The position numbers were made by a program, and so were the translations under genes. The notes under the pieces were generated by a model. That model saw only the letters and a program-made list of their open reading frames with translations. It was not told where the DNA came from and searched no databases. From positions 64,001-128,000 of the IMG/VR virus record IMGVR_UViG_3300037488_003551: a DNA stretch of 64,000 nt. The stretch is one strand, 5' to 3'. Source of the DNA: a virus. Positions 50,175 to 61,884 of this stretch are shown here, piece by piece (positions within the stretch are counted from its first letter, which is position 1; every line of letters starts with the position of its first letter).

Positions 50175-50750
50175 ATGCGAGTTACCTATGCGGGCGAAGC
50201 AGTAGTTGACCAATTTTCGGTGTGGAATGAAGCTGGAACTGCCAAAGTCTCTGGGCTCGTGACTTTTACGAAGCTCTCCTGGAAAAATGCAGTATCGCAG
50301 GTGATGACAATTGCCATTACGGAAATTGGAACTACTCCGGGCGAGTACATGATGGTTTTTACGCCTCCTTCAACGGGTTTCTGGAAAGTGGAGGTGACCG
50401 AGCCTTCATCTGGAGACGTTTTTACGAGTTTTTACGATGTGCAGTTGCGACCATATCGTTTGAGGATGTCCGCAGTCGATAATCGCACAAACGTCCGTTT
50501 CGCTATTTGGGCTGAAAATGAAGATGGTACACGTGCGAATGGATTCACGACGGTCAGCGCCTCTATCCTCGAACCAGACGGTACGCTAGTGGATAATATG
50601 GGGTCTGCGACTCCTACGAGTGACGGTGTATCTATATTCCTAGCGGATAGCACGGACGTGCCCTCGGGCGCGGAGTATATCGTCAAGGTTATTGGTACGC
50701 AGGGAGCTCTAACCTGGACGTATAACATCGGTTTTGCGAAGGTAGCATAG
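50175..50750 (+). CDS. Putative Ig-like structural protein
   Basis: GAGGTG RBS; EIGTTPGEY..FTP...G.W. Confidence 0.65.
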   Translation: MRVTYAGEAVVDQFSVWNEAGTAKVSGLVTFTKLSWKNAVSQVMTIAITEIGTTPGEYMMVFTPPSTGFWKVEVTEPSSGDVFTSFYDVQLRPYRLRMSAVDNRTNVRFAIWAENEDGTRANGFTTVSASILEPDGTLVDNMGSATPTSDGVSIFLADSTDVPSGAEYIVKVIGTQGALTWTYNIGFAKVA

Positions 50751-50758
50751 AAGGGCAA

Positions 50759-50938
50759 ATGCCCAAATTCCTAACAGCCCAGCAGCTATTTGAAGTCCTC
50801 CGAGTTCTTCCGGAAGAAGACCGCAAGCGGATGCGTGTCGTTGTCTCGGACGTAAACGATGAGCGGTCGGAAATTGATGATTATTTTCTTTGTATAAACC
50901 GAATTATTTTACACGTAAAACATTCTTTTAACAGCTAG
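50759..50938 (+). CDS. 59-aa hypothetical protein
   Basis: AAGGG RBS; MPKFLTAQQLFEVL... Confidence 0.5.
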   Translation: MPKFLTAQQLFEVLRVLPEEDRKRMRVVVSDVNDERSEIDDYFLCINRIILHVKHSFNS

Positions 50939-50965
50939 AAAATTCCCTTTAAATCGTGGTACAAG
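50939..50965 (+). promoter_or_regulatory. AAAAT-N13-TGGTACAAG promoter motif
   Basis: Upstream of DHH gene. Confidence 0.5.
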
Positions 50966-51022
50966 AAGACGATCCACAAGGTGTGGTTCATTGATTTTTT
51001 GTTATCCCATCAAGGAGGGAAG

Positions 51023-51991
51023 ATGACGCTTCGCATCCTGCACCACAACGATCCGGATGGTTATGCTTCGGCTTATATTGTTTTTGATTTTGCTCTGAAA
51101 TCTGAGCTCGTGAATCTTGTTTCCGAGATTAAATTCCATTCGATGGCTTATGGGCAGCCTGTTCCGGTTGAGATTGATTATTCTCAAGACCGTGTAATCA
51201 TGGTCGATTTTTCCCTGCAGCCACTCCGTGCCATGGAAGAATTCGCGGCTCGATTTCCAGTAGGGCAATTCATTTGGATTGACCATCACCAGACCTCGAT
51301 TGACATGGAAGAGCTTTCTTCTTTTGGGTTGAAAGACATCCCAGGCATACGAGAGGTTTCGGATAAGAAGGGCAGACCTACCGCAGCCTGTGAGCTCACG
51401 TGGCAGTTCTTTTTTCCAGGAGAAGATTTGCCTCCAGGAATCGAAATGCTAGGGGGATGGGATACTTGGAGATACGTCAAAGAGGAAGATTCTCGTTCCA
51501 AGTTCTTTATCCAGTACTGCAATTCTATAAACTGCACACCGTATTCACAAGAAGGTCAAACATTTTGGGAGAATATTTTACTCGCTAACGACAACCCTCA
51601 CGATTGGCTTTATGAGAATGTTTTAAGGGAAGGTGAGGCTATTGACCGTTTTCGTACGAATGACAACGTGAAGCGCATCAAGGGCTCGGGTTTTGCAGGA
51701 AAGTTTGGTGGGTACTCAGCTATCATGGTAAACGACGCGGGAGGGTCTCTTCTTTTCGAAGGGTTCAAGCCGGCGCCGTCTGAAGTGGATTTGATGGTGG
51801 CGTTCAAGTTCACAAAGAACGGGTATTTCACTGTGAGCTTGTACAGCGTGCAGGAGCACATCGACTGTGGAGCCATCGCGAAGAAGCTCGGGGAAGCGGG
51901 TCCTATCCCTTCTGGTGGTGGTCACAAGGGCGCGGCTGGGTTTCAGTGTAATTGGTCGTATTTAGAGTCTATCATCGAAAGGAATGTGTGA
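51023..51991 (+). CDS. DHH/DHHA1 family phosphoesterase (NrnB/oligoribonuclease-like)
   Basis: HHNDPDG, VDFS, IDHH, GGGHKGAAGF. Confidence 0.9.
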   Translation: MTLRILHHNDPDGYASAYIVFDFALKSELVNLVSEIKFHSMAYGQPVPVEIDYSQDRVIMVDFSLQPLRAMEEFAARFPVGQFIWIDHHQTSIDMEELSSFGLKDIPGIREVSDKKGRPTAACELTWQFFFPGEDLPPGIEMLGGWDTWRYVKEEDSRSKFFIQYCNSINCTPYSQEGQTFWENILLANDNPHDWLYENVLREGEAIDRFRTNDNVKRIKGSGFAGKFGGYSAIMVNDAGGSLLFEGFKPAPSEVDLMVAFKFTKNGYFTVSLYSVQEHIDCGAIAKKLGEAGPIPSGGGHKGAAGFQCNWSYLESIIERNV

Positions 51992-51993
51992 GG

Positions 51994-52341
51994 ATGTCAA
52001 GAGTTAAGATTAAACCAAAAGCATCAGTACGTAGTGTGACGCGCGACGCCGAGAAGTACCTCGAGGAGCTCCAGGGGATTAACGAGCGCCTGAAACAGGC
52101 TAACAACCAGCTCGCGCAAGCGCACGTGGCCATGCACGGGTGGGTGAAGGTCTTGGAGGAGCGAGTGGTGAAGCTAGAGGCGCACCTGGGCCTCCTTCCG
52201 AAGCCGGAAGTTCTTGCTGAGCCAGTTGCGGGTGAGGCTCTTGAAGGGCCACGCGTAGAAGTAAGCGCGCCCGGAGAGACCCTGGACGTAGTCCTCTATA
52301 CACCCGGCATAATCCAAACCCAGGCCGTCGATAGCCAGTAG
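51994..52341 (+). CDS. Coiled-coil hypothetical protein
   Basis: 115 aa; overlaps the convergent gene end. Confidence 0.5.
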   Translation: MSRVKIKPKASVRSVTRDAEKYLEELQGINERLKQANNQLAQAHVAMHGWVKVLEERVVKLEAHLGLLPKPEVLAEPVAGEALEGPRVEVSAPGETLDVVLYTPGIIQTQAVDSQ

Positions 52342-55470: not shown

Positions 55471-55653
55471 AAAAAAAGAGCCCTCGCTCTTCTTCCACCC
55501 TGAGAGTTATTCGGCCAGAGAGCTCGGGTCGAGAAGCCGCACGGCGGCGAGGACCGAGCTATCGGTTGAACACTCTAAACACTATTGAACGTTTTAATAC
55601 TGCTGTAACAGCAGCTTGCGTTTTAAAAACGCTGCGTGGAAGAAGAGGAGGGC
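55471..55653. ncRNA. Candidate ~175-nt multibranch structured RNA
   Basis: 18-bp closing stem 55480-55498/55636-55653 enclosing one long and three short hairpins. Confidence 0.55.
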
Positions 55654-55663
55654 ACAAGGACTT

Positions 55664-56275
55664 TTAACCCCCGTAATCGGTAGTGGAAAGAGCTTCTACT
55701 TCTTTCTCTATTTTTTTCCATTGCCGCATACGGTAGGCGATTTTACTTCGAGTAGTTTTAGATGTGGATACGCAGAAACCTCGTGTCGCGTAAGCGGTGA
55801 GAGACTTTTCCCATGATTTACAAACTGGTAAATAGTGAGCAAGCCATTTTGCACCGCATTCGAGTTGTCCGGGGACGGTTGCTAGGTCGCAGTTTCGAGC
55901 GGCAATTCCGTGTACTTGTGTGAGGCCCACTTCTCCTAGTTTTCCGAGAGCTGTCATCTCGAAGGTGCTCTCGTTATAGACGATTGTCGTCAGAAGGAGA
56001 GGTGGAATCCCATGCGTTTGAGAAGCCTCGACAATGGCTTTTGCCATATCGATGCGAACCTCGGAGTCTCGTGACAGGATCTTTCCGGGTTCTGCGCGCA
56101 TGAAATACTTGATTGCAAGGTCCACGGAGCGTACTTCTTCGTCGAAGCTTTTAGGGAGTTGCTCTGCGGGCTCTGCGGCGGTGGCATCCCTGCTCGATAA
56201 AAGCAGCATCACCATTAGCGTCGTTTTAGCCAGGCGCATCGTTCTGTTATGTCCTTTCCGCGCGTGATTGCGCAT
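55664..56275 (-). CDS. SLT-family lytic transglycosylase with signal peptide
   Basis: I.YNEST catalytic Glu motif, GEVGLTQV, L.AY; hydrophobic N-terminus (start may be 56239). Confidence 0.85.
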   Translation of the reverse strand: MRNHARKGHNRTMRLAKTTLMVMLLLSSRDATAAEPAEQLPKSFDEEVRSVDLAIKYFMRAEPGKILSRDSEVRIDMAKAIVEASQTHGIPPLLLTTIVYNESTFEMTALGKLGEVGLTQVHGIAARNCDLATVPGQLECGAKWLAHYLPVCKSWEKSLTAYATRGFCVSTSKTTRSKIAYRMRQWKKIEKEVEALSTTDYGG

Positions 56276-56314
56276 GTGGTAGTTTAGGATGTTGGTTGTA
56301 TCACAAACAACATC

Positions 56315-56510
56315 GTTCCGACTTTATTTTATACGTTCTACAAAACTGATAGAAGGAGCTTTTTGGATAATCATATAGATTACCGTAGCCCCTTCGTGTT
56401 TGTTTCCTGCTTCCTCGTTTTAAGTTTCGTTTTAGTCGGTTTCCGAATTGAAGACCGAATAACACCAGAGCTCGAAACTCCACAGGCTGTTACCGCTGAA
56501 CTAGCGGCCA
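56315..56510 (-). ncRNA. Putative TnpB omega/reRNA (scaffold plus ~19-nt guide)
   Basis: Overlaps tnpB 3' end: GCC.CTAGTTC.GCGG.AACAGCCTGTGGAG...GAAGCAGGAA...TTTTGTAGAACG then TATAAAATAAAGTCGGAAC and a hairpin. Confidence 0.65.
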
Positions 56511-57582
56511 AATTTTGCAGATTTAGGGCTGCGTTTATATCTCGGTGTGCTGCATATGCACATGTAGGACAAATAAATATCTTATCTCGTTTAAATTCTT
56601 CATGTATTTCCCCACAGTTGGAACAAGTTTTTGATGAGGGATAGAATCTATTAGCAATTACAATTGTAGTCCCCGTTAAGGCAGCTTTATATGTTAATTG
56701 ACGTCTAAATTCATAGAATCCTAAGGAAGAAATTGCGGGTGCGAAGGACCTATTAGCCAGCATTCCACGTACATTTAAGTCTTCGATACCTAAAATTGCG
56801 TAGGTAGATGTAAGATTTTTAGTTAGCTTGTGCAGACAGTCGGTACGTAGACAAAAGATTCTATAATGCTGGTTTCTTAGTTTGTTCAGAGCCTTTAGTT
56901 TATTATTAGAGCCCTTTTTCTTCCGCGAGAATTGACGATTTAAACGAGCTAGTTTTTTGAGTTCTAGAGATAAGCTAGGAGGTTTGAGTATTATTTCGCC
57001 TGTTGAAATCGTTGCAAGATGCGTAATACCTAAATCTATACCCGCTATTCCGTGGTTATTGTGAGTAGCTCGGTTATAGGACTCAGGTAATTTTACTAGT
57101 ATGCTCACAAACCAAAATTCAGCCTTTCTAGAAATGGTTGCGGAGAGCATCTTTCCGTTAAAGCGTAAGGCTTCGAACATTCGTATTTTCCCTATTTTAG
57201 GTAATTTTATGTAATTATTTTCAACTTTAAAAGTACCGGGTCCAGTATCGGCTCGGAATGAGTCGTGTACGCCCTTGCGTTTAAATCTAGGATACTGACT
57301 TTGCTTCTTAAAAAAGCGGTTAAAAGCTTGTCCTAGATTTAATATTGCATATTGAGGAGCAGCTTTTGTTACGTTCTTCATCCAAGGAAATTGTATTTTT
57401 TTAATTTTGTTTAATTCTCGCAGTAGTCCCAGCGCTGTTGTGCTGAGACCTTTTGCATGATTATTGTTCCATTCCTCCAGTCCCCAATTATAAGCTTTGC
57501 GGGCTACCCCGCAGGCTTGTATCATGTATGTTTTTTGAATGTTATTAGGATTGAGGCGTATCTTATGGGCTAAGATTGGCAT
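56380..57582 (-). CDS. tnpB: RNA-guided endonuclease TnpB (IS607/IS200-IS605 superfamily), no transposase
   Basis: N-terminal AHKIRLNP...ACGVAR.AYNW; RuvC GIDLG, IEDL, HRDINAA; CSNC/CPTC Zn ribbon. Confidence 0.93.
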   Translation of the reverse strand: MPILAHKIRLNPNNIQKTYMIQACGVARKAYNWGLEEWNNNHAKGLSTTALGLLRELNKIKKIQFPWMKNVTKAAPQYAILNLGQAFNRFFKKQSQYPRFKRKGVHDSFRADTGPGTFKVENNYIKLPKIGKIRMFEALRFNGKMLSATISRKAEFWFVSILVKLPESYNRATHNNHGIAGIDLGITHLATISTGEIILKPPSLSLELKKLARLNRQFSRKKKGSNNKLKALNKLRNQHYRIFCLRTDCLHKLTKNLTSTYAILGIEDLNVRGMLANRSFAPAISSLGFYEFRRQLTYKAALTGTTIVIANRFYPSSKTCSNCGEIHEEFKRDKIFICPTCAYAAHRDINAALNLQNLAASSAVTACGVSSSGVIRSSIRKPTKTKLKTRKQETNTKGLR

Positions 57583-57589
57583 GTCAGAC

Positions 57590-57614
57590 CTTATACCATT
57601 TTATTTAGGATTTT
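57590..57614 (-). promoter_or_regulatory. AAAAT-N11-TGGTATAAG promoter motif 7 nt before the tnpB ATG
   Basis: Minus strand GAAAATCCTAAATAAAATGGTATAAGGTCTGAC-ATG. Confidence 0.55.
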
Positions 57615-57949
57615 CGCAATTCTTCTTTGAACCACTCCCAGCACTTTTTAGTGAGTTCGTCATACGCGGGGGTCCCGCCATTTGTTGGCGGATAAAAATG
57701 TCGAATGCTGCAACTTTCGATATACATCCCTGCTGCAATTTCCTCAGGAGTTAATCCGTGGTCGTTTGCATAGGAGATATAGACTTTATTTATATAGTGC
57801 GTAAAAGTACTTACGCGTTTAAAAAACTCTGCGCGTGCAGCTTCTTCGCGCGCCTGCTCGACTTTTTCTTTATCGAGTTCGACCTTTGTACCTACAGGGA
57901 CTTTTTTAAATCCCCCTTTGCCGTCGTAGACGTTTATGGTGTCTGTCAT
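57605..57949 (-). CDS. Hypothetical protein
   Basis: ATGA overlap with upstream gene. Confidence 0.65.
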   Translation of the reverse strand: MTDTINVYDGKGGFKKVPVGTKVELDKEKVEQAREEAARAEFFKRVSTFTHYINKVYISYANDHGLTPEEIAAGMYIESCSIRHFYPPTNGGTPAYDELTKKCWEWFKEELRKS

Positions 57950-58203
57950 TTCGTCTTCCCTCGGTGTTTTCCGCAATGTTTGCGTACTTCATTAGCCATC
58001 ACGATTTCGATTTTGTGGACGGCGTTCTCTCGGAACTCGACCTTAGCTCTGGGCGGATAAACCGGATTTCCCGGCTTGTTTTCCGCGAAAATGGAGCGGT
58101 CGAGACAGTATCCTTGAATCAAGGTCTTTCTTTGTCCGTTTTTGAGTCCTCTTTCGAGTGCCCAATAGTGTTCACAGGTTCCACAGGGTTTTAGATTTTC
58201 CAC
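57946..58203 (-). CDS. Small Cys-rich protein
   Basis: CGTCEHY...GYC...C. Confidence 0.65.
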   Translation of the reverse strand: MENLKPCGTCEHYWALERGLKNGQRKTLIQGYCLDRSIFAENKPGNPVYPPRAKVEFRENAVHKIEIVMANEVRKHCGKHRGKTK

Positions 58204-58204
58204 G

Positions 58205-59082: not shown

Positions 59083-59592
59083 TCAGTTGTAGGCGCGTTT
59101 CGGGGGTCGGATGGTTCCTTTTGGACTTTGAACAGCTAGCGCAGCTTTTTGCATGGGTGGTCGTCCTCTCCTCTTCGGAGCTTCGTCGACCTCTACCGCC
59201 TGGGTAGTGGGCTTACGACTGCGCTTTGGCGGCTCTTCTGCCACGTCGAGCTTCGAAAGGGGAGGACGCCCTCGTCTTTTAGGCTCTTCGACCGCTTCAA
59301 CCTGTGCCACGGGCTTACGCCCACGTCTTTTAGGCTCTTCGACCACTTCAACCTGTGCCGCGGGCTGACGTCCACGCTTTTGAGACACTGGAGCTGGCAC
59401 TGGCTTTCCCTTTTGCACCTTCTGCGGTTCTGAAGCAGAGCGTGCAATAGGCATTTGGGCTGCCAAAAGGATTTTGGTCAGCTTGGTTCTCGTACCACAG
59501 GCTTTGCACGTCCCGTACTCGCCCGGGAGGGCCACGACTCGTTCCGTGCATTTCGGGCAAGAGAAGATTTTGGAACCTTTGGGACGGGGCAT
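59083..59592 (-). CDS. Zn-ribbon plus tandem AT-hook-like repeat DNA-binding protein
   Basis: CPKC...CKAC; five ~17-aa repeats with KRRGRPP/KRRGRKP. Confidence 0.75.
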   Translation of the reverse strand: MPRPKGSKIFSCPKCTERVVALPGEYGTCKACGTRTKLTKILLAAQMPIARSASEPQKVQKGKPVPAPVSQKRGRQPAAQVEVVEEPKRRGRKPVAQVEAVEEPKRRGRPPLSKLDVAEEPPKRSRKPTTQAVEVDEAPKRRGRPPMQKAALAVQSPKGTIRPPKRAYN

Positions 59593-59607
59593 CTCAGACT
59601 CCTTAGG

Positions 59608-61884
59608 TTATGCGCTCTTTAATTTGTTAAAGAGCGTTATCGTTTTCTTTAGTAGAGTACAGGCATAATCCTGGCTGTCAATAAGTATTAAGCCTAAAGA
59701 ACGATAAATTTTCATTCCGTAACCCATAGGAGACTTTTCCTTCTGAAAATTTATGTTCTTCATATGGGCTTTGTGCCGTATAAGATTGGACGTTCCCGTC
59801 CAAAAACGGCTATCCAAAATGGCAACGACTCCTAGGTCGGTTTGAGACCGTATTAGGCGTCCAGCCCCTTGGCGTACGGCTTCGAGCATGATGGGAACGG
59901 ATACTTCCATGAAGGAATTCGATCCAGCACGCGCGGTAAGAGCGCGGATGATTGGGTCGTCTGGTACGGGGAAAGGAAGTTTTGGGATAATCACCAGGCG
60001 TAGTTTGCTACCTTGGATATCGACCCCTTCCCAGAAGCTCTTGAGGCCATAGAGCATGGAATTAGGGGTTTGGTGATACTGTTTGGTCAGCGCGTCGGCT
60101 GTTATCCCGTCGCTTTGGGTAAGGACTGGGATGCCAGCTTCTTCTAAACGTCTTCGAGTTCGGTTAGCGACCTCTCGTAGGTCTTTGGCCGAAGAAAACA
60201 GGACGAATCCATCGCCAACGCTAGCTGTGGCGAGCGCTACGATTTCGTTTGCGATGTCGTCGTACCATTCGAAAAAGCCTCCCTTGGCGGGAATCGTATC
60301 CATGCGCGGAATATAGAGGCGAGCTGCTTTTCGATAGTCAAAGGGACTACCTACGACTTTTTCGACAACGTCGTCCTCCAGGCGATTATACCCAAGCGAT
60401 GCGCGCATGTAGGAGAAGTCGTTTCCATTTTGTGCGAGCGTAGCACTCGTGATGACGATGTGTTTGAAGTGTTTGTTTAGGGCTGGGCGGATAAGAGTTC
60501 CAACATCTACGGGAATAAGGCTGAGCCCTCGAGGGTCCAGTGCGGCTGTTTTGGTAGTGTAAAAATCCTCGGTACGAGCCTCTGTTAGGAATGAATTCAG
60601 TCGTTTGAGTTTGTTGATGAGGCGTGCGCGAATGGTGCAACCCTTCGGATTTTCCTCAAAGACTTCTTCTGTTATTGGTATACTTTCTAAGTACGTTGTT
60701 ACGCTGGAAATTCTAGTTACGAGCTGCGCATCAACTCCTAGGTCTTCTACGTACTTATTTATTTCAGCTAGTACTACAGGTGCAAAGTTATATTTATGGT
60801 CGTCGTTATCTGTAAAATTAGGAATTTCATTGAATGTAGGTCTGCTTACTGTATTTGCTATGTCTAGACGGTCTTTTAAATTTTTAGCTAATATATCTAG
60901 TTCTTCAGCTAATGGATGGTATGTAGCGTATCCTAGTCCCTCAGAACCCAGGAGCAGGAGGTCGGTACGCTGTAACTCGCTCGAAATTCCACCTAGATAT
61001 CCAGGAGATATTGTTGCTTGAAATGCGCTGCGTAGCGATGCCACCGCTTGGTGTGCTTCATCCATAACTAAAAACTTAAAAGCACGCTTTCCAAGACCGT
61101 CATCGAGTATTCCAGGAAAACGCAAGAAGGTTCCGAAGTAGTGGTAATTAGTAATGATTATGCGCGCTTTACGTGCGTTTTTTCCATAGCAATCATACTT
61201 ACAAACGCCAGGTTTTGGACAATTATCGGTTGAGATTTTTCCCCACCATTTGGCTTCGATATGTGCAGGCCAATTATCGAGGTCCGCAGGGCGTCCCTTG
61301 TACTTTTCTAAGAATGCGTCGAAATGTCCTTTGTAATTGTCAGGTACTTCTTTTCGTAGCTCCGGGCATGCGTAGTTGTTGCGGCCTTTGAGAAGGGCGT
61401 AGGAGATTCCGGTTTCCCCGTCGGCTCCAAGCGCTTCCAATATCTTCGGAAAATCGCGTGTGAGCTGTTTTTGTAGGGCTTTGTTTGATGTGATGATGAT
61501 GGCTCGAGCTGTACGGTCTTTTAAGAGCTCGAGGATAACAGGGATGATGTAGGCGTAACTTTTTCCAACGCCGGTTCCTCCTTCGATAAAGGTGACACTT
61601 TTGGGTTCGGCAAATTGCATGTCGATTGTGTTTGCATACTCGAGCTGTGCGGGTCTCCTTTCCTTGACGAGATTGCCTACTCCAATTTCTAGGAGGTCCG
61701 CCCCTGTCTTGGACAGGAGCTCACCGCAGAAGGTGCAGGGCATTTTGTTGGGGTCTTTGTCGGCATCGTACTCGACATCATAAGTGAGCCGGTAGATACC
61801 ACAGTTCGGGTTCTTACAGAGCATGTAGGGGTCCCTCCGAATTTTGATACGAGTCCCGGGTTTTTTGGGAATAGCTAGAGGCAT
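59608..61884 (-). CDS. dinG: DinG/XPD-family ATP-dependent helicase with N-terminal Zn ribbon
   Basis: RPAQ Q-motif, GGTGVGKS, Cys cluster, DEAH, SATL, FWEGVD, QGAGRLIRS. Confidence 0.9.
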   Translation of the reverse strand: MPLAIPKKPGTRIKIRRDPYMLCKNPNCGIYRLTYDVEYDADKDPNKMPCTFCGELLSKTGADLLEIGVGNLVKERRPAQLEYANTIDMQFAEPKSVTFIEGGTGVGKSYAYIIPVILELLKDRTARAIIITSNKALQKQLTRDFPKILEALGADGETGISYALLKGRNNYACPELRKEVPDNYKGHFDAFLEKYKGRPADLDNWPAHIEAKWWGKISTDNCPKPGVCKYDCYGKNARKARIIITNYHYFGTFLRFPGILDDGLGKRAFKFLVMDEAHQAVASLRSAFQATISPGYLGGISSELQRTDLLLLGSEGLGYATYHPLAEELDILAKNLKDRLDIANTVSRPTFNEIPNFTDNDDHKYNFAPVVLAEINKYVEDLGVDAQLVTRISSVTTYLESIPITEEVFEENPKGCTIRARLINKLKRLNSFLTEARTEDFYTTKTAALDPRGLSLIPVDVGTLIRPALNKHFKHIVITSATLAQNGNDFSYMRASLGYNRLEDDVVEKVVGSPFDYRKAARLYIPRMDTIPAKGGFFEWYDDIANEIVALATASVGDGFVLFSSAKDLREVANRTRRRLEEAGIPVLTQSDGITADALTKQYHQTPNSMLYGLKSFWEGVDIQGSKLRLVIIPKLPFPVPDDPIIRALTARAGSNSFMEVSVPIMLEAVRQGAGRLIRSQTDLGVVAILDSRFWTGTSNLIRHKAHMKNINFQKEKSPMGYGMKIYRSLGLILIDSQDYACTLLKKTITLFNKLKSA

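Follow-up and report, generated by a model that had tools for sequence, protein, structure and literature searches.

In the 64,000-nucleotide stretch of viral DNA analysed here (the window, positions 64,001 to 128,000 of IMG/VR virus record IMGVR_UViG_3300037488_003551), a tnpB gene is carried by a 1262-bp (1.26 kb) cassette whose predicted guide matches perfectly the intergenic site that the cassette occupies, in the form in which this site occurs in near-identical phages lacking the cassette. By sequence comparison, the predicted target corresponds to the empty allele, and the insertion abolishes it. We consider it likely, with a probability of about 0.6, that the cassette derives from an IS607 element of which tnpB alone is left and that it serves as an RNA-guided homing element between phages, and it probably spreads between co-infecting phages in the manner of a homing gene. 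The source record is the 172,892-bp genome of an uncultured phage, estimated to be 97% complete, of which the window is a part; the locus lies on the minus strand, and all coordinates given below are window positions (Table 1).

TnpB is the ancestor of Cas12, and its known natural role, established experimentally, is to restore the transposon after excision by the transposon's own transposase. Transposase-less tnpB genes are common in phage genomes. To our knowledge, the sole demonstration of TnpB-driven spread between genomes comes from a plasmid population that was engineered; for phages, such spread exists as theory only. The locus described here suggests how transposase-less tnpB genes of phages persist, and it constitutes a natural test case, with a defined cassette, a defined guide, natural susceptible alleles and candidate resistant ones.

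Empty alleles of the insertion site in related phages

Homologues of the 114-aa protein encoded immediately upstream of the cassette, which share 70-97% identity with it, mark the orthologous site in relatives. In every contig with such a homologue the next gene codes for the lytic transglycosylase (SLT), after a gap of about 100 nt that contains no tnpB. At this same intergenic site tnpB is present in six contigs and absent from about 20. The natural empty alleles fix the insert at 57595-56334. When these bases were excised virtually, the joined flanks aligned without gaps to three empty contigs, L104, L105 and L106, with about 97.5-97.8% identity over 9-12 kb; taking all the gap-free alignments across the excision point together (L007, L104-L108 and L110), the identity was 96.3-98.5% over 2-12 kb. 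The 6-bp repeat GTATAA is found at each junction (57596-57591 and 56334-56329), whereas the empty site has a single copy of it, so that the crossover point may lie anywhere within it.

The empty site of L104-L106 reads ...TTTATGG (that is, ...CTTTATGG) directly followed by TATAAAATAAAGTCGGAACG, which corresponds to a G-rich target-adjacent motif (TAM) and to a match with the predicted guide at 20 positions out of 20. An earlier note on this DNA, based on its letters alone (hereafter the sequence-only reading), had proposed that excision between the two repeats would give a GG-type TAM joined to a perfect target, and had suggested looking for such an empty allele in related phages. The allele was indeed found, in L104-L106 and in others, and the first three match the proposal exactly. 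The sequence details on which that reading was built, namely the coordinates, the motifs, the scaffold tail, the hairpin and the GTATAA at both junctions, also proved to be correct. Within the phage's own genome, a full match to the guide exists only at the resident locus, where it is preceded by ACG rather than TGG.

In the other empty alleles, guide position 3 differs from the guide in L007, L109, L110 and L107/108, and TAM position -1 differs in L107/108. Both fall on the least constrained positions of the promoter described below, and the changes may be either neutral or escape variants. The distant relatives (70-77% nucleotide identity) are all empty and have 10-11 mismatches to the guide. 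Since all the more distant relatives are empty too, the insertion is the derived state. Contigs with and without tnpB have neighbouring sample accession numbers, which, judged from these numbers alone, suggests that they come from the same studies.

One metagenome scan yielded an additional empty allele, while IMG/VR pattern scans with single proteins, as well as scans of viral contigs with the junction sequences and with the left-flank patch described below, found nothing. As regards close relatives among cultured phages, megablast gave no match, and searching with the flanking proteins by tblastn yielded at most remote ones.

The tnpB gene and its assignment to the IS607 family

The encoded protein aligns end to end with solved TnpB structures (E = 7e-46 to ISDra2 TnpB) and keeps all invariant columns in a 31-member alignment of its nearest relatives. 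The three acidic residues of the RuvC site, already noticed in the sequence-only reading, were confirmed as D183, E267 and D348, and the CxxC...CxxC zinc finger is present as well (C320/C323/C338/C341). The same reading had stated that tnpA is missing. Neither a serine recombinase (Resolvase) nor a Y1 transposase (Y1_Tnp) was matched anywhere in the 97%-complete genome, no serine-recombinase tnpA lies directly upstream of tnpB at the locus or genome-wide, and tnpB is present in a single copy in the whole genome.

The nearest TnpB relatives are about 52-53% identical to the protein. An IS607-type serine-recombinase tnpA, whole or as a remnant, was found directly upstream in 27 of 85 viral loci of TnpB relatives, and about 20% of IS607 loci have been reported to be without TnpA (PMC11061315). 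The assignment to IS607 and the GG-type TAM proposed earlier both agree with these relatives and with the literature. Some viral loci (L032, L033, L046, L059, L061 and L090) contain an intact tnpB with mere fragments of the IS607 serine-recombinase gene upstream, which suggests that tnpA decayed repeatedly in viral copies. The closest relatives include solitary tnpB genes in phage-like neighbourhoods (L017:3214-4410, L018:3001-4176 and the contig of P0041), whose neighbours code, among others, for DnaB, a sigma-70 region 4 protein, an AcrVA2-like protein and a fused RNA polymerase subunit; a fused gene of this kind is typical of jumbo phages.

The sequence-only reading had held that the locus leaves no room for the left end of a transposon. 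Only 13 nt are indeed available, but this arrangement is not unique. A related tnpB-only element of 1246 bp occurs in two unrelated viral contexts (L025:2983-4228 and L026:2983-4228; 98% identical, with 22 differences across the 1188-nt gene), and has GG at both ends and a spacing of 13 nt between GG and ATG, as in the window. Because this element is found in two contexts, such a short left end is compatible with mobility, and elements of the L025/L026 type presumably move by means of a transposase acting in trans. The two ends of the window's element share no terminal repeat of at least 8 nt, whether direct or inverted, as expected for IS607. The GC content of the element is 38.8%, as compared to 49.9% for the genome, and falls in the lowest 2% of genome windows; by this compositional measure, the element is foreign.

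The guide-RNA scaffold and the guide

Experiments have established that the guide RNAs of IS607 elements have the RAGATH-18 motif as their core (PMC11061315). In the window a similar core is predicted at the end of the gene, and the last ~35 codons of tnpB (56380-56486, minus strand) double as this RNA; constraints on the RNA may be the main influence on the conserved C-terminal tail of the protein clade (AASSAVTACG..SSG...KQE). When the window was aligned with 17 relatives, compensatory changes were observed in 18 of the 25 predicted pairs of the scaffold. The closing stem shows 3-10 compensatory changes per pair and pairs perfectly in the window. Past this stem, the scaffold tails of relatives read ..GGAGAACG(G) or ..GGAACGG, and that of the window ..GTAGAACG(T). 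The tail ...TTTTGTAGAACG ends at 56334 and is followed by TATAAAATAAAGTCGGAAC (56333-56315). The distance from the RNA core to the tail is 70 nt here, as compared to 73 nt in L025, whose end is known from its two insertions; the corresponding 3' flanking motif measures 64 nt in ISFba1 and about 60 nt family-wide (PMC11061315). Covariation, the conserved ...GAACG tail and the matching length of the 3' flank place the scaffold end at 56334 +/-1 nt, and the predicted scaffold is of the RAGATH-18-like IS607 type.

The left flank ends in TGG and the right end of the element reads ..GAACGT; any dinucleotide within GTATAA would fit the junctions as IS607 core dinucleotide. The sequence-only reading placed the guide start at 56333, which fits the empty alleles and gives ATGG as target context and AACG as resident context. 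The start is nonetheless ambiguous by 1 nt. Alignment with homologous relatives ending in ..GAACGG gives GT as crossover dinucleotide, TGGT as TAM and 56332 as guide start; in this frame the target context TGGT and the resident context ACGT differ by G versus C at -3. In the IS607 element of Clostridium botulinum, with TAM TGGG and scaffold end UCGG, it is likewise the G at -3 that separates target from self (PMC10690162). The left junction of the inserted cassette, TGG(T)ATAAGG..., has 5 nt in common with the guide and should be safe from predicted cleavage. For the IS607-family TnpB of ISFba1, single mismatches at guide positions 1-13 abolish cleavage (PMC11061315).

A divergent patch in the left flank

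The left flank of the cassette contains a short patch with 21 mismatches with respect to L104-L106, whereas the flank beyond it (-200 to about -1750) is almost identical to theirs. The divergence is highest next to the cassette: 11 of the 21 positions from -25 to -5 are mismatched, which makes this the most divergent 21-nt window in the 12-kb comparison. The changes are mostly synonymous, as a diverged donor would lead one to expect, and the last codons of the upstream gene are kept (E-L-R/K-K-S-stop); for this reason, the patch is to be regarded as a diverged homologue and not as a random stretch. A boundary of the patch would come to lie within 5 nt of the left junction by chance with a probability of about 0.02. 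Taken as a whole, the patch looks like a co-conversion tract, and the simplest reading is that a more distant phage, which already had the cassette at the same site, passed it to an L104-like phage along with some 200 nt of left flank.

Promoter context of the insertion

The motif GGTAnAA is invariant at the intergenic site in all relatives, while the surrounding bases vary, and the empty site fits a candidate extended -10 promoter (TGn + TAnAAT) of the SLT gene. The cassette lies in the gap between the gene for the 114-aa protein and the SLT gene and splits the TGn from the -10 hexamer. As a consequence of the insertion, the first bases of the element, TATAAG, rebuild the motif before tnpB, and the SLT gene keeps the hexamer and loses the TG. 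In the window TGGTANAAG occurs 6 times against 1.66 expected, a modest enrichment (3 of 100 shuffles reach 6), and all six sites (2451, 2759, 19294, 50957, and 57598 and 61978 on the minus strand) are upstream of a co-oriented open reading frame (ORF). It may be the main promoter type of the phage. An A-tract is often present 10-25 nt upstream of these sites.

The stop codon of the upstream gene is followed by 22 nt (ATAAAATGGTATAAGGTCTGAC) and then by the tnpB ATG at 57582, with TGGTATAAG at 57598-57590 on the minus strand. The spacing of the motif had been taken as typical of a leaderless mRNA. Its placement before the ATG is as described; however, within the 13-nt left end there is a TAAGG, similar to a ribosome-binding site and separated from the ATG by 6 nt. 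Because of this Shine-Dalgarno (SD)-like sequence, a leaderless mRNA is not the sole reading, and translation of tnpB from a read-through transcript is as plausible.

Proposed mechanism and alternative explanations

We propose that the tnpB transcript originates at the rebuilt TGGTATAAG promoter, from read-through of the upstream gene, or in both ways, and that TnpB would trim this transcript to a guide RNA, the last ~20 nt of which derive from the right flank. During co-infection with a tnpB-less relative, the complex would recognise (A)TGG(T) followed by TATAAAATAAAG... and cut; the break would then be repaired from the tnpB+ genome, copying the cassette and some of the left flank. If TnpB cuts at the far end of the target, to the right of the insertion point, the left end of the break would need to lose about 20 nt before pairing with the left flank of the donor. 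The resident copy would be safe, having ACG(T) in place of TGG(T) before the same 20 nt, that is, a C for the G at -3, as in the C. botulinum IS607 element. As to its first arrival, which is uncertain, the element was probably a circular intermediate at that stage, inserted into a GTATAA look-alike site by a transposase supplied in trans. A bolder version of the proposal would make the locus a self-sufficient natural phage gene drive, which has no transposase, uses the TGn of a promoter as its TAM, restores its own -10 element and spreads by cutting the intact promoter of relatives, with rivals escaping at the n of TGn and at the third base of the hexamer; we regard this version as possible, at a little less than even odds.

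The central observation of the sequence-only reading is confirmed, and its interpretation is partly supported. Homing into tnpB-less relatives, which it had proposed, finds good support at the level of sequence in the perfect-target empty alleles, to which the patch resembling a co-conversion tract adds, and several findings weigh against it. The right flank has no mismatches to L104-L106 for at least 1.5 kb (more than 3.5 kb in L104) and gives no conversion signal, even if a one-sided patch is what would be expected should the cut lie at the far, right-hand end of the target. A donor lineage carrying the left patch was not found in the viral-contig scan. All six tnpB+ contigs are near-clonal (99.4-100% identical, with no single-nucleotide polymorphism (SNP) in 55640-58083), and the cassette is thus seen in one genetic background. 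These phages show mosaicism everywhere, and the left patch could be a product of ordinary recombination. Regarding the RNA, the match to Rfam RF03064 (RAGATH-18) at 56486-56404 scores 23.6 bits with E = 0.055 and is below the gathering threshold; at that threshold, no match was obtained in the window or in 19 relatives, among which are bona fide IS607 elements of cultured phages. The right end is ..GAACGT and not the ..CGG of relatives and of published IS607 elements; the second G of the tail is also missing in relatives L019 and L023. Finally, both TAM frames (ATGG or TGGT) fit the empty alleles.

The near-clonal background and the mosaicism of these phages are also what one would expect if the cassette were an inert passenger, resulting from a one-off IS607-type insertion by a host transposase and kept in one phage lineage by descent and ordinary recombination, with TnpB being either unexpressed or without consequence for inheritance. 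Moreover, the guide of any TnpB matches its own empty site by construction, and the match alone proves nothing. We consider this explanation rather unlikely, given that the nuclease residues, the zinc finger and the guide-RNA structure are all intact, that a patch ending at the junction implies entry by homologous exchange from a diverged donor with the cassette at the same site, and that the accession numbers of samples with susceptible empty alleles are close to those of the tnpB+ contigs. The patch also bears on the idea that TnpB is mainly a weapon of competition, destroying co-infecting tnpB-less relatives with conversion being rare or irrelevant, since it points to copying and not to killing alone. 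The target logic of such a weapon would be the same as that of homing, killing of this kind has been described for protein homing endonucleases in phages (PMC13565253), and the variation at guide position 3 and TAM -1 could represent escape; these, however, are the least constrained positions of the TGnTAnAAT promoter and their variation may be neutral, and we judge this idea improbable.

The ordinary restorative role would require that a host IS607 transposase still excises and moves the element, with TnpB doing nothing more than restoring the vacated donor site. A 6-bp GTATAA repeat is what would remain after one crossover had joined a circular intermediate (junction ..GAAC-GTATAA-GG..) to the target, and the tnpB-only relatives L025/L026 do reach new sites. 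Nevertheless, the phage genome has no transposase, the element occurs just once, and always at this site, in the contigs that have it, and the core dinucleotide is apparently not GG, which makes this role very improbable here. Even less credible is a function as promoter regulator, as suggested in the sequence-only reading, by which TnpB would bind TGGTATAA promoters through its seed and repress them. It is true that TGG, as the end of the TAM, and the first 5 guide nt together reproduce the recurrent TGGTATAA motif, and TnpB-derived repressors (TldR) exist in bacteria. But this motif match is fully explained by the landing site. Genome-wide, no other GG-adjacent site matches the guide beyond 5-6 nt: the best one has 6 nt before the first mismatch and 13/16 matches overall, and the site at 19294 matches 5 nt. 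In addition, the nuclease residues are intact, whereas TldRs are nuclease-dead, and the sensitivity of ISFba1 TnpB to single mismatches argues against an effect at such sites. This part of the sequence-only reading therefore found no support.

Comparison with known systems

The closest known systems are the IS607 TnpBs with RAGATH-18 guide RNA, namely those of the C. botulinum IStron and of ISFba1, which belong to the same protein family. The layout of the guide RNA is the same, with a RAGATH-18-like core, a 3' flank of 60-70 nt and a guide of about 20 nt from the right flank, and so are the G-rich TAM at the end of the left flank and the predicted protection of the self copy by a C for G at -3. 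Unlike these elements, the one described here has no tnpA either in the element or in the genome, its left end measures 13 nt, its right end is ..CGT instead of ..CGG, and its RNA core lies inside the tnpB coding region and not after it. Moreover, it resides in a phage replicon, and its empty site is found in other phage genomes rather than on a sister chromosome.

The free-standing homing endonuclease genes of phage T4 (Seg/Mob), known for intronless homing and marker exclusion, resemble the cassette in being nuclease genes wedged between conserved phage genes, present or absent among close relatives, with their target in the gene-less allele and with flanking sequence that seems to be co-transferred. 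They differ in that recognition here, as judged from the sequence, would be by an RNA guide and a short TAM instead of a protein, and in that self and non-self are set by the insertion itself and not by substitutions in nearby genes. For OMEGA systems (named for their obligate mobile element-guided activity), a 'transposon non-restorative homing' into co-infecting phages or plasmids has been called theoretical in a 2026 review, and the spread of IS605 in a plasmid population was cited (PMC13565253). The cassette would correspond to this scheme, TnpB cutting the orthologous empty site on another replicon and being copied in without TnpA. Unlike the theoretical phage case of that review (PMC13565253), natural plus and minus phage alleles are documented here, as DNA sequences; in the literature searched we found mentions of phage tnpB genes and no documented natural alleles of both types. 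TldRs, the nuclease-dead transcription factors derived from TnpB, share with the present system the origin from TnpB, the guide RNA and a target that overlaps a promoter. Here, by contrast, the RuvC triad is kept, the guide has no long match other than the empty insertion site, and no sign of domestication is seen.

Hairpin, neighbouring genes and other features

The positions of the cassette components and of the flanking features are collected in Table 1.

Table 1. Features of the tnpB locus (window coordinates).
Feature	Position	Strand	Description
tnpB	56380-57582	minus	400 aa; catalytic residues intact; Pfam HTH_OrfB_IS605, OrfB_IS605, Cas12f1-like_TNB
Predicted guide	56314-56333	minus	20 nt, TATAAAATAAAGTCGGAACG; equals the right flank; directly past the scaffold end; start ambiguous by 1 nt
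RAGATH-18-like omega/right-end element RNA (reRNA) core	56404-56486	minus	Predicted within the last ~35 tnpB codons; Rfam RF03064
Scaffold 3' flank	56334-56403	minus	Closing stem 56399-56403 with 56340-56344; long hairpin 56352-56395; tail AGAACG 56339-56334
Left end	57583-57595	minus	13 nt, TATAAGGTCTGAC; -10-like TATAAG rebuilt after TGG; SD-like TAAGG
TGG	57596-57598	minus	Last bases of the left flank; candidate TAM end; TGn of the extended -10 promoter; junction set by empty alleles
Divergent left-flank patch	57600-57794	minus	195 nt, -199 to -5 from the junction; candidate co-conversion tract
Upstream gene (left flank)	57605-57949	minus	114 aa; ORF and gene calls; stop codon 57607-57605
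Hairpin GATGTTG...CAACATC	56288-56314	minus	Ancestral intergenic region (5' untranslated region of the SLT gene), outside the insert; from folding; same in empty alleles
Downstream lytic transglycosylase (SLT) gene (right flank)	55664-56239	minus	Pfam SLT, E = 3e-7

The hairpin, which follows the guide, had been taken in the sequence-only reading as the boundary of a fixed guide. The juxtaposition is real, but the hairpin is identical in the empty alleles and predates the insertion, and was rejected as a feature of the cassette for this reason; in L109, one change in an arm keeps a G-U pair. Its fold has 7+4 bp and -10 kcal/mol, with z = -1.5, which is not significant alone, and since it has no U-tract it differs from a typical terminator. 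Fortuitously, it might restrict the trimming of the guide at its 3' end.

The 114-aa product of the upstream gene has no Pfam or PHROG match. A difference between the tnpB+ contigs concerning a gene of 153 or 206 aa was dropped, the DNA being identical and the gene calls alone differing. Among the near-identical contigs (99.4-100%), SNPs are clustered at 59385-59797, 59965-60768 and 50688-52297, with SNP-free kilobases between them, which indicates frequent recombination among co-circulating variants. In the lineage of the window, no gene is called in the 255-nt gap at 57950-58204 (minus strand); in relatives L008, L107 and L110 a gene of 81-85 aa is called between the genes for the 146-aa and the 114-aa proteins.

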